Assembly (NCBI RefSeq): GCF_044324785.1
Contig: NZ_CP172127.1
Length of the DNA stretch: 64,000 nt
From: Escherichia coli
GTDB lineage: Bacteria > Pseudomonadota > Gammaproteobacteria > Enterobacterales > Enterobacteriaceae
Strand: one strand, 5' to 3'
Shown here: one piece after another, positions 541-51,830 of the stretch
Position numbering within the stretch: the stretch's first letter is position 1
Layout: each line of letters begins with the position of its first letter
Position numbers and translations under genes: made by a program
The notes under the pieces: model-generated
Told to the model about the DNA's origin: nothing
The model's database searches: none
The model's input: the letters and a program-made list of their open reading frames with translations, nothing else

Positions 541-1167
541 ATGACAAGTCAAAGCGTACTGCCTCCGAACGCAATAACCCCCGAGAGAGCGCTGGAATCT
601 GTTTTATCTCACGTTGGCGATCTGCCTGGCGATATTCGAATTATTAAAAATCCCGATTTGTGTCCTGCAAATCTGTTGCCGTGGCTGGCGTGGGAATACG
701 CCGTCACCTACTGGAACCCCGACTGGAGCGAGCAGCAAAAACGCGAAATTATTAAAGCAGCTGCGTGGCAGAACAAGCACCGCGGAACGCGTGGAGCTGT
801 TGAACGAGCGTTATTAACAGTTGGATTTGAGAGCAAAATGAGAGAGTGGTTTGAAGCCACGCCGAGGGACGACCCGTATACATTCGCAATTAAAATATAT
901 CTGCTAAAAAGTATAGGGTTAGATTTAGAGCTATTGAATACATTTATAGCGCAAATATTTGATGCAAAAAATTGTCGTTCATTATTAAAGGAAATAAATT
1001 TCGAAACGGGTGTCGATGGTGAGTTTTTTATAGCCGGTACACCTTACGCGAAAATAGACGTAAACGTCCCAGCAGACGGCGACGGCGGTGTAAAAATTAA
1101 CGGCGGGCTATATATATCGGGCTCACCAATTGTTAGTTTAAATGTGGAGATAGGGCCAAATGGCTGA
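541..1167 (+). CDS. Phage tail/baseplate protein I-like
   Basis: 208-aa ORF between the J-like and H-like genes; start is 2 nt after the J stop and it overlaps the H start. Confidence 0.55.
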   Translation: MTSQSVLPPNAITPERALESVLSHVGDLPGDIRIIKNPDLCPANLLPWLAWEYAVTYWNPDWSEQQKREIIKAAAWQNKHRGTRGAVERALLTVGFESKMREWFEATPRDDPYTFAIKIYLLKSIGLDLELLNTFIAQIFDAKNCRSLLKEINFETGVDGEFFIAGTPYAKIDVNVPADGDGGVKINGGLYISGSPIVSLNVEIGPNG

Positions 1168-2284
1168 AAATAAAATTTACGCAGTACTGACAGACCGTGG
1201 CGCACAACTCGAGGCCGCTGCCCTGGCGTCAGGCGTTCCAGTGGTGCTGAACAAATTTGTTATCGGTGACGCGAACGGAAACGACGATGTAACACCAGAC
1301 CCTGCACGAACAGCATTAATTCACGAGACGTATCGCGGTGATATTAAATCGTCAGAAAATAGCGGTAATCAGGTTATTTTTACGCTATACGTACCACCGG
1401 AAACCGGCGGCTATACTATCCGCGAAGTGGGAATACTGACAGATAAAGGTGAACTGTACTCTGTAGCGCGTTCGCCGGATATTTTAAAACCCACGGACAG
1501 TAACGGCGCGCTGATTTCAATCACGTATAAATACACTCTCGCGGTGTCCAGCACCTCTACAGTTAATGTTGTAGTATATGACAACTACGTAACTCCCGAA
1601 GCAGCTGACAAAAAATATTTGCAGATAAGTAAAAACTTATCTGAAATTTCCGCAAATGGTGAAACTGCTCAGCAGGCTGCGCGGAAAAATATTGGTATAG
1701 ATGGGGATGTTGCATATAGAGATAAGAGTAATACATTTACAACTCAAAACACTTTCAAAGACGATGTTTTTTTTGAAGATATTTTGATTTCTAAAAAACA
1801 AATAAATATAAATAAACCAGATACCAACTTGACATTATTTTCGCTTGCGGGCTGGTCAGATGTGAGCGGTGATTATTTAGAAGTGTCGACGCGGGGGGGA
1901 AATAATCAAAACGTTTTTTATAGATTACGCGGAATTCACTATGACGGCCTGGTGTTACTGTGCGGCGGGCAGACGTATAAATATTGGAATGAGGGAAATC
2001 TTAAACCGGTTAAAACGATTAACGGGAAGTCCCCAGACGCTAACGGGAACGTCGCAATAACAGTAAGTAGCTCAGGGATACAGAACGTCCAGCTTGGCGC
2101 AGAGGTTGCTCACACACCGGCGAGTAATGAGGTTACGTGGGACTTTAAATGTCCGACCGGCTGTGTTCTTACTGGGATATATGTTCAGGAAACCGGCGAC
2201 AGCTCAGCTGATAATATCGGCGGTGTTTATTATAAACCGATCCAAAAATACATTAATAATGTATGGACTACGATTTCCGGATGA
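1160..2284 (+). CDS. Tail fiber protein, P2 gpH-like (short, 374 aa)
   Basis: N-terminal region (LIHETYRGD...YVPPETGGYTIREVGILTD) and C-terminal motif (YYKPIQKYINNVWTTISG) resemble the conserved ends of P2 gpH as I remember it; the central region is AT-rich. Confidence 0.7.
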   Translation: MAENKIYAVLTDRGAQLEAAALASGVPVVLNKFVIGDANGNDDVTPDPARTALIHETYRGDIKSSENSGNQVIFTLYVPPETGGYTIREVGILTDKGELYSVARSPDILKPTDSNGALISITYKYTLAVSSTSTVNVVVYDNYVTPEAADKKYLQISKNLSEISANGETAQQAARKNIGIDGDVAYRDKSNTFTTQNTFKDDVFFEDILISKKQININKPDTNLTLFSLAGWSDVSGDYLEVSTRGGNNQNVFYRLRGIHYDGLVLLCGGQTYKYWNEGNLKPVKTINGKSPDANGNVAITVSSSGIQNVQLGAEVAHTPASNEVTWDFKCPTGCVLTGIYVQETGDSSADNIGGVYYKPIQKYINNVWTTISG

Positions 2285-2287
2285 GTT

Positions 2288-2866
2288 ATGCAAAATTTAA
2301 AATCATTTAAGCTTGTAAAACCTAAAACGAAATTACTTAAACTTAGCGAGTCTGACGGACAAAATGTTTTGTATCTTCAGTCCGAAGACGGCCTGGATTG
2401 GTATGAATGCCAGTCACTGTATCGCGATGACACAGTAAAAATAATGTACGACAAAGAAAACATTATTCGATCAGTTGTTGATCGCCCGGTCCCGGAGCGA
2501 GGAAATACCTATTCTGTGAGCATGTTTTTCCCGATTGATATGAGTGTTACGGAGGTTGAGTTGAGCACATATCCTTCTGAGCTAACTCTCGACGGATCGT
2601 GGAAATTTGTTGACGGTGATGTATATCAAGATGAGCTCATTGTAAATGAGCGTATTTACAAAGAAAACTCCAAAAAAATTAATGAATTAGTCCGAGAGGC
2701 TCAGTCAGCAATTCTAAATTTACAAACGGCCATAGAGATTGATATTTCATCAGATGGTGATGAGGAAAAATTAATAGAATGGCGACGGTACCTGTGCGCG
2801 CTGAATAAAATAACAGCCACGGATCTGAGTCAGTCCCCACTTAACACGCCTTTACGACCAGCATAA
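2288..2866 (+). CDS. Tail fiber assembly chaperone (Tfa/gpG-like)
   Basis: 192-aa ORF immediately downstream of the fiber gene; AT-rich; position is typical of a Tfa. Confidence 0.55.
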   Translation: MQNLKSFKLVKPKTKLLKLSESDGQNVLYLQSEDGLDWYECQSLYRDDTVKIMYDKENIIRSVVDRPVPERGNTYSVSMFFPIDMSVTEVELSTYPSELTLDGSWKFVDGDVYQDELIVNERIYKENSKKINELVREAQSAILNLQTAIEIDISSDGDEEKLIEWRRYLCALNKITATDLSQSPLNTPLRPA

Positions 2867-2878
2867 ATAGGGTACCTA

Positions 2879-4384
2879 ATGAGCACTAATTTTTTACACG
2901 GTATTCGCACGCTCGAATACGACGACGGCACAAAAGAGATTAGCACGGTAGATATTTCAGTTATCGGGATTGTTGGTACTGCACCGGATTCCGCGCAATC
3001 AACCAGTTCCGAGTTAATAACAGGGAGTGCTATTTTAAAAAACCGCCTGAAATTCACGGCGACGGGACAGGGGGTGAACGGCAATTCATGGAGCGTAGAG
3101 ATTCTCGAAACCGATCCGGACGGCTGCACGGCACTGTGGAGTGATATGCCCGACGGGAGTCGACGTTTATCAATATCAGTCGCACCGGCATCCGGCTCGC
3201 ACGGATACACCCCAGCAGAAATCGTGCAGGCAGTCACAATAGCAAACCCGCCTCCGGACCAATTATTTTTAACAATTACGGCAGTAGATGTCGAGGAGGA
3301 CGCGGGAAATGTGACTGCCTCACCGTTGCAATATTTAAGCGGCGGCAGTGATGAGGCGTTCCCAATTAATACCCCCGTACTTGTTGCCGGGAGTCCAAAA
3401 AAATCCGCTTTACTGGGTGAGCGCGGCACGTTGCCGAAAGATATTGCCGATATTTTCAATCAGGACAACGCCTTGCTTGTTGTTGTACGAGTAAAAGATG
3501 ACAAAGACACAACAAAACAACAGCAAAATATTATCGACGGTGTCAAGCAGCTGGAAAAATCGAAACAGTTAACCGAAGTCACACCGCGTATTATTATTGC
3601 ACCAGATTTTAGCGCAATTGATGCGATAGCCGCTCAGCTTGAGGTGGCCGCAAATAAACTCCGGGGGGTGTGTTATATAGACTCTCCGCGCGCTGCTACC
3701 CCTGCAGACGTTGTGAATCGCCGGCAAAAACTCGGCGGACGTGCTGAGTTGTTGCGTCCCCGTGTTTATTCAACTAGCGACGTCGGGGGGCAATCAAGAC
3801 CGTATTCTGCCATCGCTGCTGGTTTACGAGCCAGAATTGATAATGAAAAAGGGTTTTGGTGGAGTAAGTCGAATCAAAATATTTATGGAATAACAGGGCT
3901 TGAGCAGGTTGATGATTTCATTATTGGCGAGACAAACTGCACAGCGAACCTGCTGAACGCTAGTCAGGTCAGCACCATCATTCGCTATGACGGATTCCGA
4001 CATTGGGGTAACTATCTGTGCAGCCTGGATCCGCAATGGTCGTTTGAATGCGTTCGTCGAACAGCTGACGTAATTGAGGATTCTATAGCCCGGGCAATGA
4101 TGACCGATTTTATTGATCGCCCGATAGACCTGCATCTCGGAACAGACGTTGTCGAGTCGATAAACGCGTATCTGCATAAATTAGAGGAGCAGGGTGCGAT
4201 TAACGGAGGGCGTGCGTGGTTAGACGGTGAGCTGAATACAAAAGAAAGTCTGGCCGCTGGCAATCTTTATATTAATGTTGATTTTGGTCCGAAATCTCCG
4301 GCACAAACAATTACGTTAATGTACCGCATTAATAATGACTATACAGTTGAAGCACTAGCCTCACTTTTTAAAGAAACAGCCTGA
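2879..4384 (+). CDS. Contractile tail sheath protein (gpFI-like)
   Basis: 501 aa; the N-terminal region (HGIRTLEYDDGTKEISTV...IGIVGTA) and later ...RYDGFRHWGN... resemble the P2 FI sheath family. Confidence 0.85.
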   Translation: MSTNFLHGIRTLEYDDGTKEISTVDISVIGIVGTAPDSAQSTSSELITGSAILKNRLKFTATGQGVNGNSWSVEILETDPDGCTALWSDMPDGSRRLSISVAPASGSHGYTPAEIVQAVTIANPPPDQLFLTITAVDVEEDAGNVTASPLQYLSGGSDEAFPINTPVLVAGSPKKSALLGERGTLPKDIADIFNQDNALLVVVRVKDDKDTTKQQQNIIDGVKQLEKSKQLTEVTPRIIIAPDFSAIDAIAAQLEVAANKLRGVCYIDSPRAATPADVVNRRQKLGGRAELLRPRVYSTSDVGGQSRPYSAIAAGLRARIDNEKGFWWSKSNQNIYGITGLEQVDDFIIGETNCTANLLNASQVSTIIRYDGFRHWGNYLCSLDPQWSFECVRRTADVIEDSIARAMMTDFIDRPIDLHLGTDVVESINAYLHKLEEQGAINGGRAWLDGELNTKESLAAGNLYINVDFGPKSPAQTITLMYRINNDYTVEALASLFKETA

Positions 4385-4401
4385 TAATTCGGAGAGTAAA
4401 T

Positions 4402-4914
4402 ATGTCAGACAGCAACGCTTACCGCGCGTTTGCGCTATTCGTGCAGGGCGAACGGGTTTTAAATTGTACTGAATATACTCCTGTCGATATGAAAATAATC
4501 GAGGACGAGTTTAAAACAGGCGCGATGGATACAGCTATCACATTAGATGGCGGTATGGAGAAAATGTCAGCCAGTTTTAAAGTTTCGGGTTCTGATTCTG
4601 GTGTTATGAGCTATTTCGGGTTAATACCGGGAGTCAAGACGCGGTTTGAAATTCGTAGTGCGTACACAGACTCCTATGGAATAAATTTTGAGCGTATTGA
4701 TACCTACGAGGGACTTATTACGGCAATCACTGATGACGCTCAGGGGACTGATTCAAAATCGTCAGTGGGGCAATCAGTAACGATTGCGCCGAGCTATTAT
4801 AAACGAGTTCAAAATGGACGAATTATTTACGAAATTCATCCTGCAAAAATGAAACGCGTTATCAACGGTGTTGATGTTCTTGCGGGCGTCGCTCGAATCC
4901 TTCATGTATATTAA
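4402..4914 (+). CDS. Tail tube protein (gpFII-like)
   Basis: 170 aa immediately after the sheath gene; size and position match FII. Confidence 0.8.
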   Translation: MSDSNAYRAFALFVQGERVLNCTEYTPVDMKIIEDEFKTGAMDTAITLDGGMEKMSASFKVSGSDSGVMSYFGLIPGVKTRFEIRSAYTDSYGINFERIDTYEGLITAITDDAQGTDSKSSVGQSVTIAPSYYKRVQNGRIIYEIHPAKMKRVINGVDVLAGVARILHVY

Positions 4915-4926
4915 AAGGTAAGTAAA

Positions 4927-5208
4927 ATGGAATCCTTATTAGACAGTATGACTATTACGCTCTCTCGACCGTTTATTATTAAGGGCGAGAGCTGCGATAC
5001 AATTACTATTCGCGAACCCAAATTACGCGACCGCATTATGTTCAGTAACGATAAAAGCAGTCTTGAAGAGCGGACAGCGACAATGCTGGCGCGCCTGGCA
5101 AATCTGGAAAGAGAGGATTTATATGCGCTCCCCGCGTGCGATTACGATCAACTGGAGGCCGCGTTTAACGAACTGGTAAAGCACCCGAAAGACCGACATC
5201 AGATATAG
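4927..5208 (+). CDS. Tail assembly chaperone (gpE-like); possible -1 frameshift extension E' to 5288
   Basis: 93-aa ORF between tube and tape measure. The -1 frame is open from 5169 to a TAA at 5286-5288. Confidence 0.55.
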   Translation: MESLLDSMTITLSRPFIIKGESCDTITIREPKLRDRIMFSNDKSSLEERTATMLARLANLEREDLYALPACDYDQLEAAFNELVKHPKDRHQI

Positions 5209-5316
5209 TTATTCTGATTCCGTTTATTGCGAAAAAACTTGCCATCCCGCCTGATACGCAAATGGACCTGCCGTATCGGGTTTTTAATTTCTATGTAGAC
5301 GAGGTCATGAAAACCG

Positions 5317-6957
5317 ATGGCTATTTCTCAAAACTTTAAAACGCAGGTTGTATTCGGGGGGCGAATAGACCCGTCGTTTCGGCGCGGTACAACAGAACTC
5401 AACGACGCCATTCGGCAGACGTCGTCTACTGTCGGAAAATTAACGAAAAGCCAGGATAAATTAAAAGACAAAATCGCAGCAATGAAACTGGCAGGTAAAG
5501 ATGTCTCTGATTTATCTGCTCAATATCAAAAGCTGGACCGTCGGATAAAGGCGACAACGCAGGACCAGGAGGCGCTGAATACCCAGCTTGCTAAAAAACA
5601 GCGGCTGGAGAAGTGGACGGGGCGCGCAAAAGGTGCTGCAAAATGGGGCGGACGAGCCGCCGCAGGTGCGGTGAGGGCCACGGGACGGGGTATCAAATGG
5701 GGGACGCTGGGGGCCGTGGGTCTGCTCGGCGGCGCGGCTGCTGGCGCGCTGGCAATGAATGCAGAGACGTCAGAAAAACTCGGTCTGGCGAAGTCCTACG
5801 GTGTTGGCATCGAAAAATACGCTGCGTGGGAAAATATTGGTAAAGCTGCGGGCCTGAACGGCGAAAATGTTGGTGACCTGTCAGAAGAACTTACAAATAA
5901 AATCGGCGAAATCGGAAACGAAAAAAACCTGAACCCCATGTTGTTTCAAATTGGCTTGACAAAAAAACGGATGGCTAAATGGGATCGAGAAAAACAGTTC
6001 AATGAAGTTATGCGGCGTATCTCTGAAATGAAGGATGATCAACAGGCGGCGAGTCTGGCTGATCAGCTAATGGGGGGAGAGGCTAATAAAATAATGACCT
6101 ATATGCGGGCGACTGGTAAAAGCTGGGAGCAGACTATGTCGGACGCTCAAAAATCAAACCTGCTAACGAAAGAAGGGGCTGAGGGTGCAGCGCGCGCGCA
6201 CGTATCCGTCACGAATCTGTGGGGGGCAATCACATCGGGGCTGGCAGATACTCTCGGCAAAATCGGAGGGGAACTCGCGCCGACGTTTGACGCTATGCGA
6301 GACGGGCTGGCATCCTGGTTTAAAGAGAATCAAGGGGGGGTTGTTGATAGTATTAAAGAATGGGTTAAGCCAGAAAATATGAAAAAACTTTGGGAGGGGA
6401 TAGTCAGTTTTGGCGAGGCGTGCGTTAAATTCGGAAAAATAATTTGGGCAGTCGTAAAAAAACTGGAGTGGTTAATCCCGGACGAGAAAACAGACGAGGA
6501 ACAGCGCGTATATAACGAAGAATATAATAAAGCGTATCAGGAATTCATGGATAGTGGTGGTAAATATTCACCGAACCCAGGACTGGCAGCAGATAATGTA
6601 GCAAAAGCAAAAGCCGACGAAGCCGTGGATAATATGCGACACCCTGAACGTCTTGCTCGTGCAAAATCACAGGCTGAATCAATGCTCTCGTTTGCTAACC
6701 CGTTTACTGGATTAATAAATAAAGACTCAACGCCTGAATCACAAAACTCAGCAACGTTGAATATTGACGCGCTGAGACAGGCAGTCGCAACTCCAGCGCC
6801 AGAGCAAAACAATAAAATTGAAATCAATATTATCGGAGCAGCAGATCCACAATCAACACAGCAGGCTGCCGCATCGGGTGTGCTCGACGGGCTGAGACAG
6901 GTTGCGAGTTCGTACAATCGTGGTGCAATGTTTGATAAACCAGCGGCGGCGGGGTGA
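5317..6957 (+). CDS. Tail tape measure protein (gpT-like)
   Basis: 546 aa, with an N-terminal coiled-coil-like region and a Gly/Ala-rich stretch (GRAAAGAVRATGRG...GLLGGAAAGALA); position after E. Confidence 0.8.
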   Translation: MAISQNFKTQVVFGGRIDPSFRRGTTELNDAIRQTSSTVGKLTKSQDKLKDKIAAMKLAGKDVSDLSAQYQKLDRRIKATTQDQEALNTQLAKKQRLEKWTGRAKGAAKWGGRAAAGAVRATGRGIKWGTLGAVGLLGGAAAGALAMNAETSEKLGLAKSYGVGIEKYAAWENIGKAAGLNGENVGDLSEELTNKIGEIGNEKNLNPMLFQIGLTKKRMAKWDREKQFNEVMRRISEMKDDQQAASLADQLMGGEANKIMTYMRATGKSWEQTMSDAQKSNLLTKEGAEGAARAHVSVTNLWGAITSGLADTLGKIGGELAPTFDAMRDGLASWFKENQGGVVDSIKEWVKPENMKKLWEGIVSFGEACVKFGKIIWAVVKKLEWLIPDEKTDEEQRVYNEEYNKAYQEFMDSGGKYSPNPGLAADNVAKAKADEAVDNMRHPERLARAKSQAESMLSFANPFTGLINKDSTPESQNSATLNIDALRQAVATPAPEQNNKIEINIIGAADPQSTQQAAASGVLDGLRQVASSYNRGAMFDKPAAAG

Positions 6958-7382
6958 CAATGAGTGATGCAATAAACGGTGCTGAGGATATCATGCTCGG
7001 TTTGGGTGATTTCATTTTTGCTATATCAACAGTAGCGTACAACAAACTGCAACGTAGTGACGCCTGGCGCTGGGCTCAGCAAACACGATTCGGGAAAAAC
7101 GACGCATTGCAGATAACCGGACGACCGAACCCCACAATCACGATCGATGGGAAAATAAACGCGTTATTCCTTGATGGGTGCGGCATTGGCTTGTTAACAG
7201 ATTTGCGGGCACTGGGGAACTCGGGAGAACCCCAGCAACTGGTGCTGGGGACCGGGGAGGTGAAGGGGTACTGGGTTATCAGGGAGTTAACAGAAACGCA
7301 AAACAGTTTTCTGAAAGGAGGGACCCCAAAATCGCAGGACTTTTCACTCACGCTCGAATATTATGGAGCTTCGCTAGATTAA
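6954..7382 (+). CDS. Tail protein gpU-like
   Basis: 142 aa, overlaps the tape-measure stop (ATGA); position. Confidence 0.6.
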   Translation: MTMSDAINGAEDIMLGLGDFIFAISTVAYNKLQRSDAWRWAQQTRFGKNDALQITGRPNPTITIDGKINALFLDGCGIGLLTDLRALGNSGEPQQLVLGTGEVKGYWVIRELTETQNSFLKGGTPKSQDFSLTLEYYGASLD

Positions 7383-7544
7383 TACAAAATCAAGCGCTAC
7401 CAGAGCACTTAACAAGTATAAAAATAATAAAAAAAACTACGAGCATAAATGTAAAACAACCTGATGGTATTTTTTTTTGACGCCGAAATACTAATACCTC
7501 TCCGACTACTAAAATTAATTCTCATTATGAAATCCTTTTAATTA

Positions 7545-7769
7545 ATGGGGCCCCAAATGATTACATACACTACACGGGACGGTGACCGTCTCGATCAGAT
7601 CTGCCTTGCTGTCTACGGGAGAACAGCAAAAACGACAGAAACCGTGTTATATCAGGTTTTAAATTACGGCGTAACGGATATGTGTGCCGTGTTTCGTGCA
7701 GGAGAAAAAATTGTTTTACCAGAAATCGACCCCGAACCGGCTAAAAAAGAAACGCAATTATGGGATTGA
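7545..7769 (+). CDS. Tail protein X-like (LysM-like); a start at 7557 (MITYT...) is also possible
   Basis: Sequence ...DRLDQICLAVYGRT...ETVLYQVLNYGV...AGEKIVLPEI... resembles P2 gpX as I remember it. Confidence 0.65.
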   Translation: MGPQMITYTTRDGDRLDQICLAVYGRTAKTTETVLYQVLNYGVTDMCAVFRAGEKIVLPEIDPEPAKKETQLWD

Positions 7770-7772
7770 TGA

Positions 7773-8816
7773 ATGAGTGATTACGTAAATACTGGCGTGG
7801 AAGCATGGAAGCCCAATTTTTATATATCTGCTGATAATGAAAACATCACGGATAAAATAAGAAAAGGTTTGATCAATATCACGCTCACAGATTATGGTGG
7901 TTCGAGTAAACAGACAGACGAATTACGCGTAGCAATCGTTTCTGAAACTCTGAAAATTCCGGCCCGCGGAGTAAAAATCAGTATTGGGCTCGGTTTCGGT
8001 AATCAGATAATTGATAAGGGTGTATACATCGTTGATGGTGCGAGCAGTGGCGGTGAACCCCGGGTAGTTGATTTCACAGCAAAAGCAGCTCCGATGAACG
8101 CATCAAAAGGCTCTCCGACAGTTCAGAGCAAAAAAACTCGCTCCTGGAGCGACGTCACTGTCAGCAATATCGTTGCAACAATAGCGAGCGATAACGGGCT
8201 AAAACCTCGCGTATCAAAGCGGTTTGCAGACAACATTATCACGCAGCTCGATCAAGTCGGCGAGTCAGATATGCACCTGATGTCGCGGCTCGCAACGAGA
8301 TTCGATGCGGTGAGTAAACCCGCGGGCGGGTACTGGATATTCCTGCCGCGCGGCGCGGGCGAATCTGTTAGCGGAGCACCGCTTCAGCACTACACGCTCA
8401 CGCGTCGTGATAACTCAAGCTGGGGTTATTCGAGAAATGGACAAAACGGTGATAGTGGCGGAGGTGGCGAAAATGCGGAGCCAACGTATTTGATCAAATA
8501 TCACGATACAGCAACGGGGCAGATCAAAGAATTGCGTACGGGCAGTGGCGGCGATCCTGTAATCGAGTGGCCGGCAGTGGAGCCGTCGCTTGATGCAGCG
8601 AAAGAAGCTGCGCCAGGACTCAAGGGCGGTGCAGCTAAAAAAGAGTTCTCCATGACTTACACGACGCCCGCGACGCTCGATTTAGTATCGCTGACTGCAG
8701 AATGCAAAGTCACAACACAAGGATTCGGGACAGAGGAGGACCGAGACTGGACAATCAATACGTTGACGCTGACGCTGGCTGAAAACGGATTCTCTGCGCG
8801 ACTGTCGCTGGAGTAA
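7773..8816 (+). CDS. Tail protein D-like
   Basis: 347 aa immediately after the X-like gene, as in R-type pyocin/phiCTX-like clusters. Confidence 0.65.
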   Translation: MSDYVNTGVEAWKPNFYISADNENITDKIRKGLINITLTDYGGSSKQTDELRVAIVSETLKIPARGVKISIGLGFGNQIIDKGVYIVDGASSGGEPRVVDFTAKAAPMNASKGSPTVQSKKTRSWSDVTVSNIVATIASDNGLKPRVSKRFADNIITQLDQVGESDMHLMSRLATRFDAVSKPAGGYWIFLPRGAGESVSGAPLQHYTLTRRDNSSWGYSRNGQNGDSGGGGENAEPTYLIKYHDTATGQIKELRTGSGGDPVIEWPAVEPSLDAAKEAAPGLKGGAAKKEFSMTYTTPATLDLVSLTAECKVTTQGFGTEEDRDWTINTLTLTLAENGFSARLSLE

Positions 8817-8821
8817 ATGAA

Positions 8822-10648
8822 ATGGCAATAATATCGGGTGTATACGCAAATGGGGTCGGCGAGCCCGTTGTCGGCGTTCAGTTAGTATTAACAGCACGGG
8901 TCACGAGTTCACGCGTAGTAATGACCACTGTTGTAGAGCAAGAAACAGGCGCGGCGGGTGAGTACAAATTTGATATGAAGCCCGGAGTTTACGTTGTCAC
9001 TGCTAGTGCGGCATATCTCGGCGTGATTAACGTTAACCCGGACAGTGTTGACGGCACGTTAAACGACTATTTGACTAATTTTAGCGCAGACGAACTGACG
9101 CCAGCTGCGTTGGCGGAGATCCAGGAACTCGTTGCCACAGCACAAGCCGCTGCCAGTGTTGCCAGCGCCGCCGCAACGGAGGCCAGGCAGAATGCCGCCG
9201 CCGCCGCTGCTGCTGCGCAGATTTCGACGGCAGCGGCAGGGAGCGCCAGATTTGAGAATTTTGACGAAATTATCAATGTCAATACAACAGCAATGCTGGA
9301 GCTGGAAAAACCGGAGGTGTTAGATCCGGATATTGCAATAACTATCACAGAGACGATTAATTATAACTATATTGGCCCGGTAAACGGATTTTGCGACGTT
9401 ACTAGCCCGCTTGAATATAAAATTCAAATGTACGCCTACACAACAGGCGAATATTTTAACGGCGAAACAAATTTAACAGCGGACGGGAAGTTTTCTTTTA
9501 AACGTTCCTGGGCTGGTGCAAAACAATTCAGATTGGTGCGCGTAGCAGATAGTAAATGGATCACTACGCTGGAATACCCGCTGTGTATTCGCAGTTACTG
9601 GATGCCCGCTGACGCCGATCCCGAGGTAGTCAGCGTCATGAAAGACCGTTGCTACACATATGATCAGGCGTGCGCGGCGCTGGCTCTCATGGCGCAGAAT
9701 CACGAGGCGGTAGAGCGTTATGTTACGGGTCTGTGCGCCCTGGTGGGTGAAAACGGCGGCATTAAATTTTTTGTTAACCGGCTGTCCGCACAGTCCTCCC
9801 GCGAATATTACCGCACGGGTAACGCGGCGTGGGTGTTGTACGCCCTGGCATTCTATCTGAGCAAATACCCTACCGGCAGTAACGCTGAGTTAGCGCGCGC
9901 GAAATTAAACGCCGGGCTAACCTGGCTGGACGGTCTGAAGGTTGACGCCAGCGGCGACCCGCGCCACGGCTTATACATGGGCGGCAACGGTAAATATCTG
10001 GAGGACGGATCATTTGATCCGAATTATGTTGCGACCTGGTGCGCGCTCGAGCACAACGTTGATATTTATTTTTTATTCGAACTCGTTGGACGGTTAACCG
10101 ATTTTACCGGATACGAACTGCGAGCCACCACGCTGGCTGCAAATATCGTGGAAAAATTCTGGATTGAGAGCGAGGGGCGATTCCGGCAGGGCGTGCACAT
10201 TGACGGCCCGGACAACGCCGCAGCGCTGGATCAATCGAGTTGGGGCGGGATATTCGCAGTAAAAGCCGCGCCGGAGTTGGCGGAAAAATGCCGCCGTTAT
10301 ATGGAAAGATTCCGGTTCGGCACACTGGAGAGCACCGGTTATACACCGTATCACCCGGACTACGGATACAGCGGCCATAGCCGTGGCGTGTGGACCGAGG
10401 GTACAGCGGGTGTAGCACTATTCGAACGTGCGCTAGGGAACGAGCAGAGAGCTACCGATCTGATCGCGGGATTAAAACCACTGCGTAATGAATACGGCTA
10501 TCGCGACTCATGCGACGATAAAAAATACGACACACTGCCGGACTGGCCGTCGACTACAAACACCGCTTGGGTTATTTTAACATGCAAGCCGGCGGGGTTT
10601 TGGTGCGTAGATTTCCCGGTATTGGACGTTGGTATCGTCAGGTACTGA
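8822..10648 (+). CDS. Side-tail-fiber-like protein: lambda Stf-like N-terminal domain, Ala-rich linker, and an unassigned ~400-aa C-terminal domain
   Basis: N-terminus MAIISGVYANGVGEPVVGVQLVLTARV...GEYKFDMKPGVYVV...GTLNDYL parallels the lambda Stf N-terminus. An AAAAAAAAQISTAAAG stretch follows, then a Trp/Tyr-rich globular region with no transmembrane or signal sequence. Confidence 0.6.
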   Translation: MAIISGVYANGVGEPVVGVQLVLTARVTSSRVVMTTVVEQETGAAGEYKFDMKPGVYVVTASAAYLGVINVNPDSVDGTLNDYLTNFSADELTPAALAEIQELVATAQAAASVASAAATEARQNAAAAAAAAQISTAAAGSARFENFDEIINVNTTAMLELEKPEVLDPDIAITITETINYNYIGPVNGFCDVTSPLEYKIQMYAYTTGEYFNGETNLTADGKFSFKRSWAGAKQFRLVRVADSKWITTLEYPLCIRSYWMPADADPEVVSVMKDRCYTYDQACAALALMAQNHEAVERYVTGLCALVGENGGIKFFVNRLSAQSSREYYRTGNAAWVLYALAFYLSKYPTGSNAELARAKLNAGLTWLDGLKVDASGDPRHGLYMGGNGKYLEDGSFDPNYVATWCALEHNVDIYFLFELVGRLTDFTGYELRATTLAANIVEKFWIESEGRFRQGVHIDGPDNAAALDQSSWGGIFAVKAAPELAEKCRRYMERFRFGTLESTGYTPYHPDYGYSGHSRGVWTEGTAGVALFERALGNEQRATDLIAGLKPLRNEYGYRDSCDDKKYDTLPDWPSTTNTAWVILTCKPAGFWCVDFPVLDVGIVRY

Positions 10649-10676
10649 CAATTATAATTTTTGGAGTTTTTTATAC

Positions 10677-11096
10677 ATGGTCGTTAAAAATATTCTTGCC
10701 TTTGGGATTATGTGTGCGCTTGCTGGTTGTGCAACCAAGCCAGTCTCAAACGAGCAGGCTACTCCCGTTCCAGAAAAACAGGTAATCAATAGCGCAATAC
10801 TCGAAAAAAGAGATGGGACAGGAGAGGTGATCATCAAGCGTGATTCGGGTTTCTTTGGGAGCGCGTGCTTTTCCCGTGTTTATGTTGATGGTAAAGAGGT
10901 GGCAGATTTAGGTACAGCTCAGAAAGTCGTTGTATACCCAACGATTGGTGATCATGTCTTCAGCGCGTGGCCAAAAGGAGTATGTGGTGGTGGCATGAGT
11001 GAGCAGGCGGGCAAGGTGACAACAGATCGTACTTTGATGTATCGCATAGGTTACGGTTCAAACGGTGAATATGGCATTCACCCAACTGCGTTTTAA
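10677..11096 (+). CDS. Small predicted outer-membrane lipoprotein (prophage cargo)
   Basis: GGAG about 10 nt upstream of the ATG at 10677. Signal peptide MVVKNILAFGIMCALAGC with lipobox LAGC; the residue after Cys is Ala (not an Asp inner-membrane retention signal); several Cys in the mature part. Confidence 0.55.
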   Translation: MVVKNILAFGIMCALAGCATKPVSNEQATPVPEKQVINSAILEKRDGTGEVIIKRDSGFFGSACFSRVYVDGKEVADLGTAQKVVVYPTIGDHVFSAWPKGVCGGGMSEQAGKVTTDRTLMYRIGYGSNGEYGIHPTAF

Positions 11097-11253
11097 CTGT
11101 GTTGGGTATGCGATTTTATTCGCATACCCCTTAGGGCAATTGACGATACTTCCAAATGACCATTATTTTACGTGTGGCCTCGATGTTGCGCACATGAGAG
11201 TTCTATATTCTTTCAAACAGGATTATCCCATTGATTTAATTATACTTTCGTAT

Positions 11254-11314
11254 GGTCTCGAAAACCGGAGTAGGGGCAACTCTACCGGGGGTTCAAATCC
11301 CCCTCTCTCCGCCA
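11254..11314 (+). repeat. Partial 3' copy (61 nt) of tRNA-Ser(CGA), serU-like; putative prophage attR
   Basis: GGTCTCGAAAACCGGAGTAGGGGCAACTCTACCGGGGGTTCAAATCCCCCTCTCTCCGCCA matches the anticodon-stem-to-CCA part of E. coli serU as I remember it. The upstream sequence does not match the tRNA 5' half. Confidence 0.8.
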
Positions 11315-11860
11315 CTTTATCAATGACTTATCTCCCGACTTCCCGCCTTGCTTTTCCTAAACAGAACAATCGTAGAATATTCTTGAAGGGTTAGATCGTC
11401 ACTGTTTTCTGTTCGATACTGTGACATTCAGCACTTGATTCGCTATGGATCTGACAGGAAGGTTTCGAGCGAAAATCTGCAGTTATTCAGTCGTTTTCTT
11501 ATCGCTCACCATTATTCTTTTAGACATTCATCCTATGAAACTGCCGCAAAGTTGGTGGTGGGAACTGAAGTTGCGTAGAGAAGGGGGCAATAATTGAGCC
11601 AAAAAAGGAACGCGGCCGTCAGATTAAAGCCGCGGGACAAAGTCCATAATTTCCAAGAGTTGTTGAATTTCCCAGCTTTTTTGAAAGCCTTTGTATCATA
11701 CTAACAAGTAAAAAAGGTTTAAATACCAAAATTAACCTATATTTCTGGTTAGCTTTACCATGACAGATGACTTGCTTCTGGAGACATTGGCGCTGCCAGT
11801 CTGTATTGGTGAGTTGTGTATTTATTGTTCGCCGCTTTCTCGGTTTTTTTCTACAGACAT

Positions 11861-11894
11861 AATAAAAAAGACACGTCTCAAGCATGAGCGTGTC
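11861..11894 (-). terminator. Rho-independent terminator downstream of zinT
   Basis: Hairpin GACACGTCTCA-AGCA-TGAGCGTGTC, followed on the minus strand by a T-run. Confidence 0.6.
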
Positions 11895-11983
11895 TGAGTT
11901 TGTTTTATTTATTTGTCTTGGTAAATTATTGTCGTTACTACCAGGCACTGTTCTGTTAAATAATTGAAGTCAGCGCAAAAAAA

Positions 11984-18765: not shown

Positions 18766-19881
18766 TTAGAACTGGTAGACGATACCAACTGCAAACTGGT
18801 CATCAGCTGCTGCGCCAGTAATGGCGGCGTCATCTTTATCCAGCATGTTGAATTTGTATGCAGTATAAACGTTCATGTTCTTATTGAAGTAGTACCAGGT
18901 ACCAACTTCAATGTAGTTCACACGGTCAGCGTCAACATATCTATGTCCAGGTACACCTTTGATATCTTTACCTTTAGAATACACATAACCTAAGGACGGA
19001 CGCAGACCAAAGTCGAATTGATACTGAACAACCGCTTCAAAGTTCTGGGTTTCATTGATAAGTTGATCACGCATTATTGTATTGCCTTCTCGATCGGCAA
19101 CACCTGTATCAATAGAACCCGGAGTCATATTACGAGTTTCACCGTACATTACAGCTGCGTAGACATTGTTCGCGTCATACTTTGCAGCCAATGACCACAG
19201 TTCAGCATTTGAACCGTTTCCATCGGCAACTTGATCGTTGGTGCGATCAGATTTGCTATATGCACCAACGATACCAAAACCATTGATGTTATAGTCTACA
19301 GACAACGCATAGCCGTCACCATTTTGTTTCTTAGTGCTACGGTTGCTGTTTTTGCCTTGGTACTGAATCGCAAAATCAAGACCATCAACCAGGCCAAAGA
19401 AATCATAGTTACGGTAGGTTGCAACACCGTTGGTACGACCATTCATGAAGTTGTCAGCGGAAGCCCAGGAATCGCCACCCCATTCAACTAACATATCGGT
19501 ATAAGCTGCGGCATCATAAGCAACACCGTAGTTACGGCCATAGTCAAATGATCCTAACTCGTTATATTTCAAACCGGCGAAGGTTAAACGGGTTTTTTCC
19601 TGGTTTTCACCTTCAGGTTTGCTGGCGTCGAGGTTGTATTCAAACTGACCGAAACCAGTCAGTTCGCTGGTGATTTGGGTTTCACCTTTAACACCGAAAC
19701 GAGCATAGGAGGTATCTTCGTTTTCGCTGTTATTATCATCAGTATTTGACCAGATGCGTTCGCCAACCATCTTGCCGTAGAAATCAACTTTATTGCCATC
19801 TTTATTATAAATTTCAGCCGCATTTGCTGCGCCAGCAACTAATAACGCCGGGACCAGCATTGCCAGAACTTTTCTTTTCAT
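18766..19881 (-). CDS. yedS: OmpC/OmpF-family outer-membrane porin, apparently intact (YedS-like)
   Basis: Signal peptide [21 protein letters not shown], then [10 protein letters not shown], and C-terminal ...VGIVYQF typical of general porins. One uninterrupted ORF at the K-12 yedS position. Confidence 0.85.
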
Positions 19882-20192: not shown

Positions 20193-20220
20193 AAAAAAAA
20201 GCCGGCATCATGCCGGCCCA
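20193..20220 (-). terminator. Strong rho-independent terminator (minus strand) in the yedS-yedR intergenic region
   Basis: GC-rich hairpin GCCGGCATCATGCCGGC, followed on the minus strand by eight T. Confidence 0.6.
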
Positions 20221-20429
20221 AAAAATATAAACAAGACGATAAAAGGCTAATAACGGGGTTATCATGACACAGAAATCAAAAAAGGTATAATTGAATTCGC
20301 TGCTAATATATTGTTTAGGTGAATTAATAAAACCATTACCATAGATAATAATAAATCTTCATTGCTGTTTTTCCGGTAATTATTGCCGTTGCGCAAAAAT
20401 TATCTATTTGTTCAAAAAATGATTGAGTC

Positions 20430-25914: not shown

Positions 25915-28439
<2,525 letters not shown>

Positions 28440-28618
28440 TTACCAGGATGATTCTCAAAACAGCACAAATTATCAAAGATGATTTTTTCGGGAGCGATCC
28501 CGTTGACGCCAGAGCCACCAAGGGGTGACGCGCGTCACATTTCTATTCATAAGTAGCGTTAATCATTCATATCACGAATATTTTCTTGTCAGCGAAAAAA
28601 ATTGCGGATAAGGTGATG

Positions 28619-28708
28619 AACACATCAGATTTCCTGGTGTAACGAATTTTTTAAGTGCTTCTTGCTTAAGCAAGTTTCATCCCGACCCCCTCAGGGTCGG
28701 GATTTTTT
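28619..28708 (+). ncRNA. dsrA: DsrA small regulatory RNA
   Basis: AACACATCAGATTTCCTGGTGTAACGAATTTTTTAAGTGCTTCTTGCTTAAGCAAGTTTCATCCCGACCCCCTCAGGGTCGGGATTTTTTT matches DsrA as I remember it, including the terminator hairpin and U-tail. Confidence 0.9.
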
Positions 28709-28718
28709 TATTGTGCAT

Positions 28719-28946
28719 TCAACGATTCACTTCAGAGACGCTGAAGTCATGAATATCCAGTTCGAAGGCATCCGCCAATTCACGCCATGTATGATATTCA
28801 CGTCCATCGACGCTAACGTGTTCAGAATCGTTCTGGCTGCGATGAACTTCGCTTTCGCTAATTTCATTGATCGCCGCCAGCAGGGCATCGACATCGACGC
28901 TGACCTCACGTTTTGCGGTATCGCTGTACTCTTTTGCGGTTTTCAT
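28719..28946 (-). CDS. yodD: Stress-induced small protein YodD
   Basis: About 75 aa (MKTAKEYSDTAKREV...); recognised; start approximate. Confidence 0.8.
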   Translation of the reverse strand: MKTAKEYSDTAKREVSVDVDALLAAINEISESEVHRSQNDSEHVSVDGREYHTWRELADAFELDIHDFSVSEVNR

Positions 28947-29018
28947 CATCTTTCCTCGCAACCGTTACTCTGTTGTTGCCGCCAGTCGTTAAGTCCGCCT
29001 GGCATCTCTTAAGTATAG

Positions 29019-29297
<279 letters not shown>

Positions 29298-29340
29298 TCT
29301 AATTCAGCCTGACTGGTGGGAAACCACCAGTCAGAATGTG

Positions 29341-29964
29341 TTAGCGCATGTTGACAAAAATACCATTAGTCACATTATCCGTCAGTCGGACGACATGGTA
29401 GATAACCTGTTTATTATGCGTTTTGATCTTACGTTTAATATTACCTTTATGCGATGAAACGGTCTTGGCTTTGATATTCATTTGGTCGGAGATTTGAATG
29501 GTACCCTGACCTGCCATCCACATTCGCAACATACTCGATTCGGTTCGGCTCAATGATAACGTCGGCATATTTAAAAACGAGGTTATCGTTGTCTCTTTTT
29601 TCAGAATATCGCCAAGGATATCGTCGAGAGATTCCGGTTTAATCGATTTAGAACTGATCAATAAATTTTTTCTGACCAATAGATATTCATCAAAATGAAC
29701 ATTGGCTATTGCCATAAAAACGATAAATAACGTATTGGGATGTTGATTAATGATGAGCTTGATACGCTGACTGTTAGAAGCATCGTGGATGAAACAGTCC
29801 TCATTAATAAACACCACTGAAGGGCGCTGTGAATCACAAGCTATGGCAAGGTCATCAACGGTTTCAATGTCGTTGATTTCTCTTTTTTTAACCCCTCTAC
29901 TCAACAGATACCCGGTTAAACCTAGTCGGGTGTAACTACATAAATCCATAATAATCGTTGACAT
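29341..29964 (-). CDS. rcsA: Capsule synthesis regulator RcsA (LuxR-family)
   Basis: 207 aa with C-terminal LuxR-type HTH; recognised. Confidence 0.9.
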
Positions 29965-30253
29965 GGCATACCCTCACTCAATGCGTAACGATAATTCCCC
30001 TTACCTGAATATTTCATCATGACTAAACGGAACAACATGGGTCACCTAATGCGCCACTCTCGCGATTTTTCAGGCGGACTTACTATCCCGTAAAGTGTTG
30101 TATAATTTGCCTGGAATTGTCTTAAAGTAAAGTAAATGTTGCGATATGTGAGTGAGCTTAAAACAAATATTTCGCCGCAGGAGTATCCTGGAAGATGTTC
30201 GTAGGTATTATTTTTCGGATAATCCTTAGGATAACATGATAAACGTTACGGAA

Positions 30254-31039
30254 TTATATTAATGGCAATTCACTAATAATATCAGCCAGCAAATTAAACA
30301 TCTCACTGAATAAATGTTCGCAAAAAGGCGCAATTAACGGCATTAATGCCGCCATTAAAGAGATACCGACAGTCAGAGTTAATGGAAATCCAATAACAAA
30401 AATGGATAATTGCGGAGCCATACGATTAAGTAAACCTAATGCCAGATTCAGGGTCAGCAGCAGAGTAATGAGCGGTAACGCCAGCATCAGCCCGTTAAGG
30501 AAAATCAAACTCCCTGCTTTGGTGAGTGCCAGAAACGCATTGCTGTTCAACGGTTCGCCACCAATTGGCAGGGTGTGAAAGGTATCGACCAGCAGTGAAA
30601 TCAACCATAAATGACCGTTAAATGTCAGGAACAGCAGTAACGCCAGCATATCCATGATACGCGCTAAAACGGGCATATTGAGATGGCTGGCCGGATCGAC
30701 AAACGTCGCAAATGACAGCCCCATTTGCAGACCGATAATTTCACCAGCGGTTCGCACAGCGGCAAAGGCAAATTGCATGGTAAAACCAAGCGCAATGCCG
30801 ATCAGGATCTGCTGCACGGCCAGCCACAGAGCAAAGAACGAAAAAACAGGAACATCGTTGGCAGGTAATGATGGGGCAATAGCGAACGTGATCATCATTG
30901 CCAGACCCAGTTTTACCCGTTTCGGCACGCTGCGTTCGCTCAGAATTGGCGCGGTAGAAATGAGCGCCAGCACGCGCAGTAACGGCCAGAAGTACAGACT
31001 TAGCCAGGAAAGCCATTGATCGCTTGTCACCTGCAACAT
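30254..31039 (-). CDS. fliR: Flagellar export apparatus protein FliR
   Basis: 261-aa membrane protein, last gene of the fliL operon. Confidence 0.9.
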
Positions 31040-48202: not shown

Positions 48203-48612
48203 CAGACTGGGTCCTGAATCAAAGAAGGGGAGAGTAAAGACTCTTTCCAGGCATCGGCAATATTACGCATTAATGCTTCCACTTCTTCGACTGCGGAGAC
48301 ATCGTTGCGTAAATTGGCTTGCAGCAAGCGCCTGACCATATAGCTATAAAGAGCAATCAAGTTTTGGGTTAGTTCGTCTTTGCTCTCTTCATCAAGACTC
48401 ACCCGCAGCCCGTTCTCAATGATGTTGATCGCTTTTGACAAAGAGACGCCTTTGCCTTGCTGATTGTTGTCCTGCATAAACAGGCGCGCTCTAACCAGTG
48501 CGCTCAGCACTCCATCAAATAGCATGGTGACCAGCTGTTGCTGGCTGGCGCTCATTACGGCGCTTTCGACGCCAATTTGTGCATAGGCTTTTGAGCCGCT
48601 CGCGGTATACAT
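48202..48612 (-). CDS. fliS: Flagellin-specific chaperone FliS
   Basis: 136 aa; recognised. Confidence 0.9.
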
Positions 48613-48626
48613 GCTGACCTCCGTGA

Positions 48627-50039
48627 TCAGGAATTACTCATTGCAGTAAATTGTTGGCTGAGATAGGTACTGGTGTTATTCAGTTTGCTCATCATGGTAT
48701 CTAATTGCGTAAACTGTGCAGTGTAACGCGCCACGGTGTCATCAATGCTGGCACTGACGGATAGATACTGTTTGGTCAGTTTTTTCAGTGTGGCGTTAAT
48801 ACTGTCCTGTGCGCTATCAATAATGCCATCATCGGCAAGGTAACCTTTTACCTCGGTGGCAATTTTGGTGGTAATTCCTGTTTCTTTACCATCGCCTACC
48901 AGCAATTCACGTACGGATGCTGTATTTTCATTCAGGACTTTTTTGAGTTTATCATCATCAATTTTCAGCTTACCCGTCGTGCCGTCCTGCTTAATCCCGA
49001 TCTCGTTTAATGTTTTGAAGGCACCGTCGCTGGCACCGTTTGCAAATTGTGCGCGGATGCCGCTTTGAATTGTACGTACAACGCTGTCTCCGAGAAGTGC
49101 ACCATTATTTTTATCTTGTGCTTCAGCACCTGGGTCTACTTCTTTATATTTTGTCAGGGTGTTAAAGGTGTCAATGAGGGAGTTATATGAATCCACCCAG
49201 CCTTTAATTGCTTCGGTTGCTTTATCGTTGCTTTTTGTCACCGTGACCCGGACGTCAGTGACTTTTTTGGTCAAATCGAGAGTCACTCCCTGAGGAGCAT
49301 CGGTAATTTTGTTACTTGAACGTTCAATATCGATACCGTTAACGTTTAGCTGTGCATTTTGCGCGTTAACCAGTTCCTTCATATTCCCGGTGTTGGTCTT
49401 GCTGTCATAAGCCAGCAGATCATTTAATTTACTGTCACCCTCAACAGATATGGTCATTTTATTGGCCAGACCTTCACTGGCGGTCAATACCAATTGATAG
49501 TTACCATCTTTGACTTTAACGATACTAGCGGAAATTCCACTATCGGCATCGTTAATGGCTTTGCTGATCTCATCCAATGACGTCTGATCTTTATTGAGCT
49601 TGATTTCCAGCGGCTCTTTACGACCGTCTTGGGTAATTTTTATTGTGCGTGTATCTGATGACTCATCACCCAGTGCATCTTTTGTTGATGCAATGATTGT
49701 CGGGGAATCAGTTCGTAAAGATTGCGCCTGCGCCAGTTGGGTTACGCTGATGGTATAGATACCGGGGGCAGCACCTGCTTCGGTGGAAACTTTAAGGTCT
49801 TCATTGCTACTGGTAACGGTAGTGCTTTTGAACAGATCGGCTTTATTTAACGCAGTATTTGCAGTCTGGAATTTTTCTAATGCACTTTTTAATGTGCCAT
49901 AGGCTGTCAGACGTGCGGTATTGTCACTCTGTTGCTGAGTAATTGGGTTTAAGCGTTTTTTTTCAGCGATGGTCAGGTTGTTTAGCAATGTATCCAGCGG
50001 CAGATTCGAACCAACGCCAAGAGATGTAAATGAAGCCAT
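48627..50039 (-). CDS. fliD: Flagellar filament cap protein FliD
   Basis: Start chosen at MASFTSLGVGSNLPLDTLL; the longer upstream ORF would overrun the sigma-28 promoter. Confidence 0.9.
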   Translation of the reverse strand: MASFTSLGVGSNLPLDTLLNNLTIAEKKRLNPITQQQSDNTARLTAYGTLKSALEKFQTANTALNKADLFKSTTVTSSNEDLKVSTEAGAAPGIYTISVTQLAQAQSLRTDSPTIIASTKDALGDESSDTRTIKITQDGRKEPLEIKLNKDQTSLDEISKAINDADSGISASIVKVKDGNYQLVLTASEGLANKMTISVEGDSKLNDLLAYDSKTNTGNMKELVNAQNAQLNVNGIDIERSSNKITDAPQGVTLDLTKKVTDVRVTVTKSNDKATEAIKGWVDSYNSLIDTFNTLTKYKEVDPGAEAQDKNNGALLGDSVVRTIQSGIRAQFANGASDGAFKTLNEIGIKQDGTTGKLKIDDDKLKKVLNENTASVRELLVGDGKETGITTKIATEVKGYLADDGIIDSAQDSINATLKKLTKQYLSVSASIDDTVARYTAQFTQLDTMMSKLNNTSTYLSQQFTAMSNS

Positions 50040-50076
50040 ACCTAATTCCTTTTGATTGCAAACAGTAGATAAGCGG

Positions 50077-50103
50077 GTTATCGGCAATTTGTGCGCAAAG
50101 TTT
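50077..50103 (-). promoter_or_regulatory. Sigma-28 (FliA) class 3 promoter for fliDST
   Basis: On the minus strand reads TAAACTTT-N11-GCCGATAA, a near-perfect sigma-28 consensus, about 40 bp upstream of the fliD start. Confidence 0.8.
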
Positions 50104-50197
50104 AATAGTTGATTCACGAAGATGATGCGCAGAGTAGAGTTGTATATTACGGATATTTCAGCCGTTAAGAAAAAACAGGAGAGAAACTAAAATTTTC

Positions 50198-50224
50198 TAA
50201 AGTTCGAAATTCAGGTGCCGATAC
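50198..50224 (+). promoter_or_regulatory. Sigma-28 (FliA) class 3 promoter for fliC
   Basis: TAAAGTTC-N11-GCCGATAC about 70 bp upstream of the fliC ATG. Confidence 0.8.
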
Positions 50225-50293
50225 AAGGGGTACGGTGAGAAACCGTGGGCAACAGCCCAATAACATCAAGTTGTAATTGATAAGGAAAAGATC

Positions 50294-51787
50294 ATGGCAC
50301 AAGTCATTAATACAAACAGCCTGTCGCTGTTGACCCAGAATAACCTGAACAAATCTCAGTCTTCTCTGAGCTCCGCCATTGAACGTCTCTCTTCTGGCCT
50401 GCGTATTAACAGTGCTAAAGATGACGCAGCAGGTCAGGCGATTGCTAACCGTTTTACGGCAAATATTAAAGGTCTGACTCAGGCTTCCCGTAACGCGAAT
50501 GATGGTATTTCTGTTGCGCAGACCACTGAAGGTGCGCTGAATGAAATTAACAACAACCTGCAGCGTATTCGTGAACTTTCTGTTCAGGCAACTAACGGTA
50601 CTAACTCTGACAGTGACCTGACCTCCATCCAGTCCGAAATCCAGCAACGTCTGAGTGAAATTGACCGTGTTTCTGGTCAGACTCAGTTTAACGGCGTTAA
50701 AGTGCTGGCTTCTGATCAGGATATGACTATTCAGGTTGGTGCAAACGACGGCGAAACAATTACTATTAAACTGCAGGAAATTAATTCCGACACACTGGGA
50801 TTATCTGGTTTTGGTATTAAAGATCCTACTAAATTAAAAGCCGCAACAGCTGAAACAACCTATTTTGGATCGACAGTTAAGCTTGCTGACGCTAATACAC
50901 TTGATGCAGATATTACAGCTACAGTTAAAGGCACTACGACTCCGGGCAAACGTGACGGTAATATTATGTCTGATGCTAACGGTAAGTTGTACGTTAAAGT
51001 TGCCGGTTCAGATAAACCCGCTGAAAATGGTTATTATGAAGTTACTGTGGAGGATGATCCGACATCTCCTGATGCAGGTAAGCTGAAGCTGGGGGCTCTA
51101 GCGGGTACCCAGCCTCAAGCAGGTAATTTAAAGGAAGTCACAACGGTGAAAGGGAAGGGGGCTATTGATGTTCAGTTGGGTACTGATACCGCAACCGCTT
51201 CTATCACAGGTGCAAAACTCTTTAAGTTAGAAGACGCTAATGGCAAAGATACTGGTTCATTTGCGTTGATTGGTGATGACGGTAAACAGTATGCAGCGAA
51301 TGTTGATCAGAAAACAGGTGCAGTTTCCGTTAAAACAATGTCTTACACTGATGCTGACGGTGTCAAACACGACAATGTTAAAGTTGAACTGGGTGGAAGC
51401 GATGGCAAAACCGAAGTTGTAACTGCAACCGATGGCAAAACTTACAGTGTTAGTGATTTACAAGGTAAGAGCCTGAAAACTGATTCTATTGCAGCAATTT
51501 CTACGCAGAAAACAGAAGATCCTTTGGCTGCTATCGATAAAGCACTGTCTCAGGTTGACTCGTTGCGTTCTAACCTAGGTGCAATTCAAAACCGTTTCGA
51601 CTCTGCCATCACCAACCTTGGCAACACCGTAAACAACCTGTCTTCTGCCCGTAGCCGTATCGAAGATGCTGACTACGCGACCGAAGTGTCTAACATGTCT
51701 CGTGCGCAGATCCTGCAACAAGCAGGTACTTCTGTTCTGGCACAGGCTAACCAGACCACGCAGAACGTACTGTCTCTGCTGCGTTAA
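50294..51787 (+). CDS. fliC: Flagellin FliC (H antigen); central variable domain differs from K-12
   Basis: Conserved N-terminus (MAQVINTNSLSLLTQNNLNKSQS...) and C-terminus (...QNVLSLLR) with a divergent middle; 497 aa. Confidence 0.95.
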   Translation: MAQVINTNSLSLLTQNNLNKSQSSLSSAIERLSSGLRINSAKDDAAGQAIANRFTANIKGLTQASRNANDGISVAQTTEGALNEINNNLQRIRELSVQATNGTNSDSDLTSIQSEIQQRLSEIDRVSGQTQFNGVKVLASDQDMTIQVGANDGETITIKLQEINSDTLGLSGFGIKDPTKLKAATAETTYFGSTVKLADANTLDADITATVKGTTTPGKRDGNIMSDANGKLYVKVAGSDKPAENGYYEVTVEDDPTSPDAGKLKLGALAGTQPQAGNLKEVTTVKGKGAIDVQLGTDTATASITGAKLFKLEDANGKDTGSFALIGDDGKQYAANVDQKTGAVSVKTMSYTDADGVKHDNVKVELGGSDGKTEVVTATDGKTYSVSDLQGKSLKTDSIAAISTQKTEDPLAAIDKALSQVDSLRSNLGAIQNRFDSAITNLGNTVNNLSSARSRIEDADYATEVSNMSRAQILQQAGTSVLAQANQTTQNVLSLLR

Positions 51788-51805
51788 TCGCCGCTATATT
51801 CTGCC

Positions 51806-51830
51806 AAACCCCGCTCCGGCGGGGTTTTTT
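51806..51830 (+). terminator. Rho-independent terminator of fliC
   Basis: AAACCCCGCTCCGGCGGGGTTTTTT hairpin plus T-run just after the fliC stop. Confidence 0.8.

Follow-up and report, generated by a model that had tools for sequence, protein, structure and literature searches.

The results of the present analysis indicate that positions 28619–28709 on the plus strand of the 64,000-nucleotide stretch of Escherichia coli DNA studied here (contig NZ_CP172127.1 of assembly GCF_044324785.1, referred to as the window) are almost certainly the dsrA gene of this strain, predicted to encode DsrA, a trans-acting, Hfq-dependent small RNA of about 87 nucleotides. DsrA, which has been studied since 1995, is a stress sRNA of E. 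coli that turns on the sigma factor RpoS and lowers H-NS. The copy in the window is confirmed to be an already known gene, the exact K-12 allele at its canonical location, and as a discovery it matters little, being long studied and identical to the reference; what it does illustrate is how such a regulator goes unmarked in annotated genomes, as described below.

The assignment is based primarily on a covariance-model match. When the whole window was scanned against Rfam 15 at gathering thresholds, the DsrA family (RF00014) matched 28619–28705 on the plus strand with 102.5 bits (E 1.5e-18), 42 bits over the gathering score of 60, and the match spans model positions 1–85 of 85 without truncation. 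The first-pass annotation, which had assigned 28619–28708 to DsrA from the letters of the sequence, had named the absence of a significant Rfam match as the finding that would speak against it; a full-length match was found instead, starting exactly at the proposed position, whereas the proposed end falls one base short, within the terminal T-run. In a permissive rescan of both strands of 27500–30300, RF00014 was the sole family above its threshold, and no other came close to reaching its own. Matches overlapping dsrA to the families anti-hemB, Betaproteobacteria toxic sRNA and EF3314_EF3315 scored far under the respective gathering scores and were set aside as noise arising from the terminator hairpin.

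Identity with the reference gene provides the second line of evidence. The dsrA gene of K-12 MG1655 (b1954; NC_000913.3 2025223..2025313, complement), which has yodD (b1953) and yedP (b1955) on either side, maps to window 28619–28709, and in a base-by-base alignment of 28400–28980 the window is 100% identical to MG1655 from 28575 to at least 28973, a stretch taking in the dsrA promoter from −44, the entire DsrA RNA and all of yodD. The earlier remark that the sequence is identical or nearly identical to K-12 DsrA therefore holds in its stronger form over the whole RNA. The window copy shares with K-12 dsrA the same RNA, core promoter, three stem-loops, terminator, neighbours, orientation and complementarity to rpoS and hns, and the sole differences lie upstream of the core promoter, at −46/−45 (28573–28574, CA vs GG in K-12), −81 (28538) and −109 (28510) relative to the dsrA +1, with none in the gene itself. 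Because of the E-value of the DsrA match together with the synteny of the locus, a chance match is excluded as an explanation. The coordinates of the gene, its predicted elements and its neighbours are collected in Table 1.

Table 1 Features of the dsrA locus in the window, with the basis on which each was placed.
Feature	Position	Strand	Basis or remark
dgcQ	ends 27609	+	
yedP (271 aa, HAD-family phosphatase)	27606–28421	−	ORF, K-12 annotation, Pfam Hydrolase_3
Putative dsrA −35 hexamer, TTGTCA	28586–28591	+	Sequence reading; same in K-12
Putative dsrA −10 hexamer, TAAGGT	28609–28614	+	Sequence reading; same in K-12
DsrA small RNA	28619–28709	+	Rfam RF00014, identity to K-12 b1954, fold
DsrA 87-nt core	28619–28705	+	U-tail to 28709, as in K-12 annotation
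Stem-loop 1 (SL1; nt 4–22)	28622–28640	+	7-bp stem, AUUUC loop; fold and Rfam consensus structure
Predicted rpoS-pairing region (DsrA nt 10–40)	28628–28658	+	Duplex with K-12 rpoS leader −127..−96
Stem-loop 2 (SL2) region (nt 26–59)	28644–28677	+	Fold
Predicted hns-pairing core (DsrA nt 31–43)	28649–28661	+	Perfect 13-nt Watson–Crick duplex with K-12 hns +7..+19
Short palindromic hairpin CUUGC-UUAA-GCAAG within the SL2 region	28661–28674	+	
Stem-loop 3 (SL3; nt 61–85) and T-run, Rho-independent terminator	28679–28709	+	Terminator scan, fold
yodD (75 aa, DUF2525)	28719–28946	−	ORF, K-12 mapping, Pfam PF10733 (E 1.6e-33)
dsrB (62 aa)	29109–29297	+	ORF, K-12 annotation, Pfam PF10781 (E 3e-34)
rcsA (207 aa)	29341–29964	−	ORF, K-12 annotation
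fliR	30254–31039	−	

The surroundings of the gene are those expected from K-12. The gene order dgcQ, yedP, dsrA, yodD, dsrB, rcsA, established from the open reading frames and their mapping to K-12, is the K-12 order, and the window is colinear with K-12 1,989,730–2,043,528 in reverse orientation at 97–98% identity, a few strain-specific segments excepted; the stretch 27000–31000 is 99.6% identical to the best E. coli genomes. The placement of dsrA between yedP and yodD, adjoining the 3′ end of the latter on the opposite strand, as initially described, agrees with the mapped coordinates: yedP is divergent from dsrA, with 197 nt between its start codon and the dsrA +1, and yodD is convergent, its stop codon (28719–28721) lying 9 nt past the DsrA U-tail. 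The name of the RNA stands for 'downstream of rcsA' (PMC5766208). Further along, a long hairpin at 29286–29352, between the convergent stop codons of dsrB and rcsA, yields spurious sub-threshold 'mir-374' matches on both strands, and is probably the shared bidirectional terminator of these two genes.

In the promoter read from the sequence, the two hexamers are separated by a 17-nt spacer, and four bases follow TAAGGT before the +1 A at 28619. We take TAAGGT to be the probable functional −10 element of dsrA, reportedly so assigned by Repoila and Gottesman (2003), and the function proposed for both hexamers draws on that work and on conservation. In 81 unique upstream sequences from other enterobacterial genera, the columns of cTTGTca rank with the most conserved, and within the −10 hexamer conservation across genera is 95% or higher for the T, the A and the final T. 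A generic sigma-70 scan of 28300–29200 did not call the dsrA promoter, because TAAGGT is a weak −10 matching just three of the six consensus positions; we reject the missed call as evidence against the promoter, which is identical from −44 to +1 to the functional K-12 allele and conserved across genera. Directly upstream of the −35 hexamer, a GAATAT motif (28573–28581, −46 to −38) is strongly conserved across genera, and the sole promoter-proximal differences from K-12, CA for GG at −46/−45, adjoin it. This motif may function as an UP-element or bind a regulator.

The RNA is predicted to fold into three hairpins with a free energy of −31.9 kcal/mol (z −5.83), none of 200 shuffled sequences being as stable. 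The terminator stem-loop proper, at 28679–28703, consists of a 10-bp stem, in which seven pairs are G–C, with a loop of 5 nt, and precedes the T-run; the sequence prerequisites for Hfq binding are visible, namely the terminator hairpin, a U-tail of at least six residues and single-stranded linkers rich in U and A. For the K-12 RNA, SL1 and SL3 are described as fixed and SL2 as dynamic, with several proposed structures (PMC5766208).

Homologues from other enterobacterial genera were compared with this fold. Scanning of the GTDB species-representative genomes with GATTTCCNGGTGTAACGAA gave 86 stretches, nearly all from Enterobacteriaceae (Citrobacter, Enterobacter, Salmonella, Klebsiella, Buttiauxella, Atlantibacter, Trabulsiella and Siccibacter included), from which an alignment of 78 distinct sequences (A2) was made. 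Two stretches were left out of it: one from a deltaproteobacterial metagenome-assembled genome (L045), which has no synteny and was dropped as a chance 19-mer match, and one from Pantoea (L063), which is without SL2. Across the alignment, covariation in these homologues lends support to SL1 and SL3: SL3 carries compensatory double changes at five of its ten pairs, with 94.5% of cells paired, and SL1 is paired in 99.8% of cells, the latter being a biased and weak test, as its 3′ arm is fixed by the search pattern. When SL2 is drawn as the short hairpin, pairing over the structure as a whole is 97.2%, vs 21–42% when the 3′ partners are slid by one to three columns. The long helix that the minimum-free-energy fold gives for SL2 is just 77% paired, with no convincing covariation in the 78 sequences, and we do not claim it as conserved on these grounds; the short CUUGC/GCAAG hairpin is 99% paired, and its sequence hardly varies, covariation neither supporting nor refuting it. 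These comparative results for SL1, SL3 and SL2 fit the published picture of a dynamic SL2 (PMC5766208).

The excluded Pantoea stretch is worth describing separately. At positions 1830–1924 of this locus (Pantoea wallisii), a DsrA-like sequence retains the conserved GAUUUCCUGGUGUAACGAAUUU core and the terminator, lacks SL2, has diverged in the 5′ arm of SL1, and adjoins homologues of yedP and yodD, with dsrB and rcsA further off. These features may indicate a shortened variant of DsrA from outside the Enterobacteriaceae sensu stricto.

Pairing with the principal targets was computed against K-12 rpoS and hns, the strain's own copies of both genes lying outside the window. Duplex folding with full-length DsrA was discarded, since it ignores intramolecular structure and over-extends the helices, and for rpoS 27 of 500 shuffled sequences scored as well; the duplexes were recomputed with the interacting parts of DsrA alone. 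The recomputed duplex between DsrA nt 10–40 and the rpoS leader contains 27 pairs at −31.8 kcal/mol (z −4.6), with none of 1000 shuffles as good, and its longest perfect run is 12 nt (DsrA 20–31 with rpoS −118..−107). The regions so predicted to pair with rpoS and with hns are the expected, published target sites.

By analogy to the identical K-12 RNA, from which low-temperature promoter activity, Hfq dependence and regulation of rpoS and hns are here carried over, the following sequence of events would apply in this strain. The gene would be transcribed from its own sigma-70 promoter, most strongly at low temperature, at which dsrA transcription is reported to increase (PMC8544407). With Hfq, on which the K-12 RNA has been published to depend (PMC5766208), SL1 and the linker would unfold and base-pair with the rpoS leader, at the upstream arm of its inhibitory hairpin, freeing the ribosome-binding site and activating RpoS translation by an anti-antisense mechanism; the same pairing would protect the mRNA from RNase E and counteract premature Rho termination. 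The linker/SL2 region would pair just downstream of the hns start codon to repress hns, and would likewise pair with and repress mreB and rbsD; with hns repressed, the neighbouring rcsA and other genes of its kind would be released from silencing by H-NS. Mechanistic accounts of DsrA acting on rpoS, hns, mreB and rbsD are available (PMC5766208, PMC6582626), and in an rGRIL-seq study DsrA, listed together with the flanking yodD and yedP, was among the top partners of rpoS mRNA (PMC8545128).

The role of DsrA is worth comparing with those of RprA and ArcZ, which are also Hfq-dependent activators of rpoS, acting on the same leader hairpin by the same anti-antisense mechanism (PMC8544407, PMC6582626), but which differ from DsrA in having unrelated sequences, other loci and other inducing signals. 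Neither was found in the 64-kb window by the Rfam scan, whose sole other sRNA match is RseX at 20194–20283 on the minus strand (RF01401, full length, 97.8 bits; gathering score 50), which lies about 8.4 kb from dsrA, in a position equivalent to that in K-12.

The close convergence of dsrA with yodD calls for a careful weighing of what the region encodes. The gene order around dsrA is matched in other genera according to the synteny of the scanned loci, and a convergent yodD is found at 72 of the 75 loci of other genera that have enough downstream sequence (loci L006–L090), unlike yedP, which is present at just 53 of 72 loci. The distance from the last T of dsrA to the yodD stop codon is also maintained, with a median of 8 nt and about 2–13 nt in most loci, close to the 9 nt seen in the window. 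Because this spacing is so tight and conserved, the SL3 hairpin probably marks the end of yodD transcripts as well, and one could go on to regard the entire region as the 3′ UTR of yodD with a shared, bidirectional terminator, and not as an independent RNA gene. That reading is, however, exceedingly improbable. The covariance-model match is full length and lies on the strand opposite yodD; dsrA has conserved promoter hexamers of its own; and SL1 and the target-pairing regions are conserved well past the needs of a terminator. On the yodD strand, moreover, the hairpin is followed by GAAACUUGC and not by a U-run, and the terminator scan called no minus-strand terminator at the SL3 hairpin.

An independent dsrA gene might still have decayed into a silent, non-functional remnant in this strain, for which nothing specific speaks beyond the upstream differences from K-12 at −46/−45, −81 and −109 already described. 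Against such decay, no base of the RNA or of the promoter between −44 and +1 differs from the functional K-12 allele, and E. coli genomes of several origins carry a 100% identical copy of the 181-bp promoter-plus-gene stretch, the −46/−45 variant included, so that we give this possibility hardly any credence. An intact dsrA gene is the reading retained here. We also considered whether its convergence with yodD has a regulatory meaning. The yodD promoter has been described as the 'most purely RpoS dependent' of four tested (bioRxiv 10.1101/2023.11.09.566509), and termination of DsrA is reported to be more efficient at low temperature and leakier at higher temperature (PMC6582626). Given these properties, the tight convergence, the activation of RpoS by DsrA and the lack of a U-tract on the yodD strand, a local feedback is conceivable, in which RpoS-driven yodD transcription running antisense into dsrA, or DsrA read-through into yodD, would tune DsrA output; we regard it as a rather improbable speculation. 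A compact genome with a shared terminator may be sufficient to explain the tight spacing, which is unlikely to mean more than compact packing.

Of 5426 complete E. coli genomes, 5338 contain a match to the 90-nt dsrA query, and in 4971 the identity is 99% or higher. The remaining 88 genomes are without a match, and two of the matches fall on records labelled plasmid. A second common allele of E. coli dsrA, seen for instance in the GTDB representative genome L025, has G for C at nt 59, whereas the window carries the K-12 allele. In one genome (H55), the match to the promoter-plus-gene query is limited to its first 79 bp, suggesting that dsrA is interrupted.

In keeping with the first-pass statement that gene callers miss dsrA, the PGAP-annotated RefSeq records among the matches listed carry no feature under dsrA, or only yodD where the query overlapped that gene, while the hand-curated K-12 record does annotate it. 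Protein-gene callers and the PGAP-annotated RefSeq records examined thus leave the DsrA regulator unmarked, and to scans relying on annotation the region separating yedP from yodD would look 'empty'.

Several other segments of the window depart from K-12. Positions 1–11100 have no K-12 counterpart. By PHROGs assignment they constitute a prophage tail module of the contractile-tailed (myovirus-type) kind, encoding a baseplate or tail protein, two tail fibres, an assembly protein for the first of these, a tail sheath, a lipoprotein and additional tail proteins; coverage of this segment in the best-matching E. coli genomes is just about 72%, at about 95% identity. Homology to K-12 resumes within the tRNA-Ser gene serU, of which only the 3′ part of about 61 nt (...GGTTCAAATCCCCCTCTCTCCGCCA) is present beside the prophage, at about 11254–11314 on the plus strand, and ARAGORN found no intact serU in the window. 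The fragment resembles an att-site remnant left by prophage integration into serU; the intact tRNA would presumably be found beyond the start of the window. At 11762–11983, about 220 bp of unrelated sequence replaces about 1 kb of K-12 (2,042,026–2,043,020, with yodB), and this strain appears to lack yodB. For 18781–19369, a stretch that takes in part of the yedS pseudogene region and continues past it, megablast gave no match to K-12.

The fliC (flagellin)/fliD region at 48589–51808 likewise has no K-12 match at the megablast level and is 99.6–99.8% identical to other E. coli, suggesting that the flagellar H-antigen type differs from that of K-12. Finally, the tRNA cluster glyW-cysT-leuZ is found at 61625–61927 on the plus strand (Gly-GCC, Cys-GCA and Leu-UAA), directly after the last gene of which K-12 annotates the sRNA sponge 3′ETS-leuZ.
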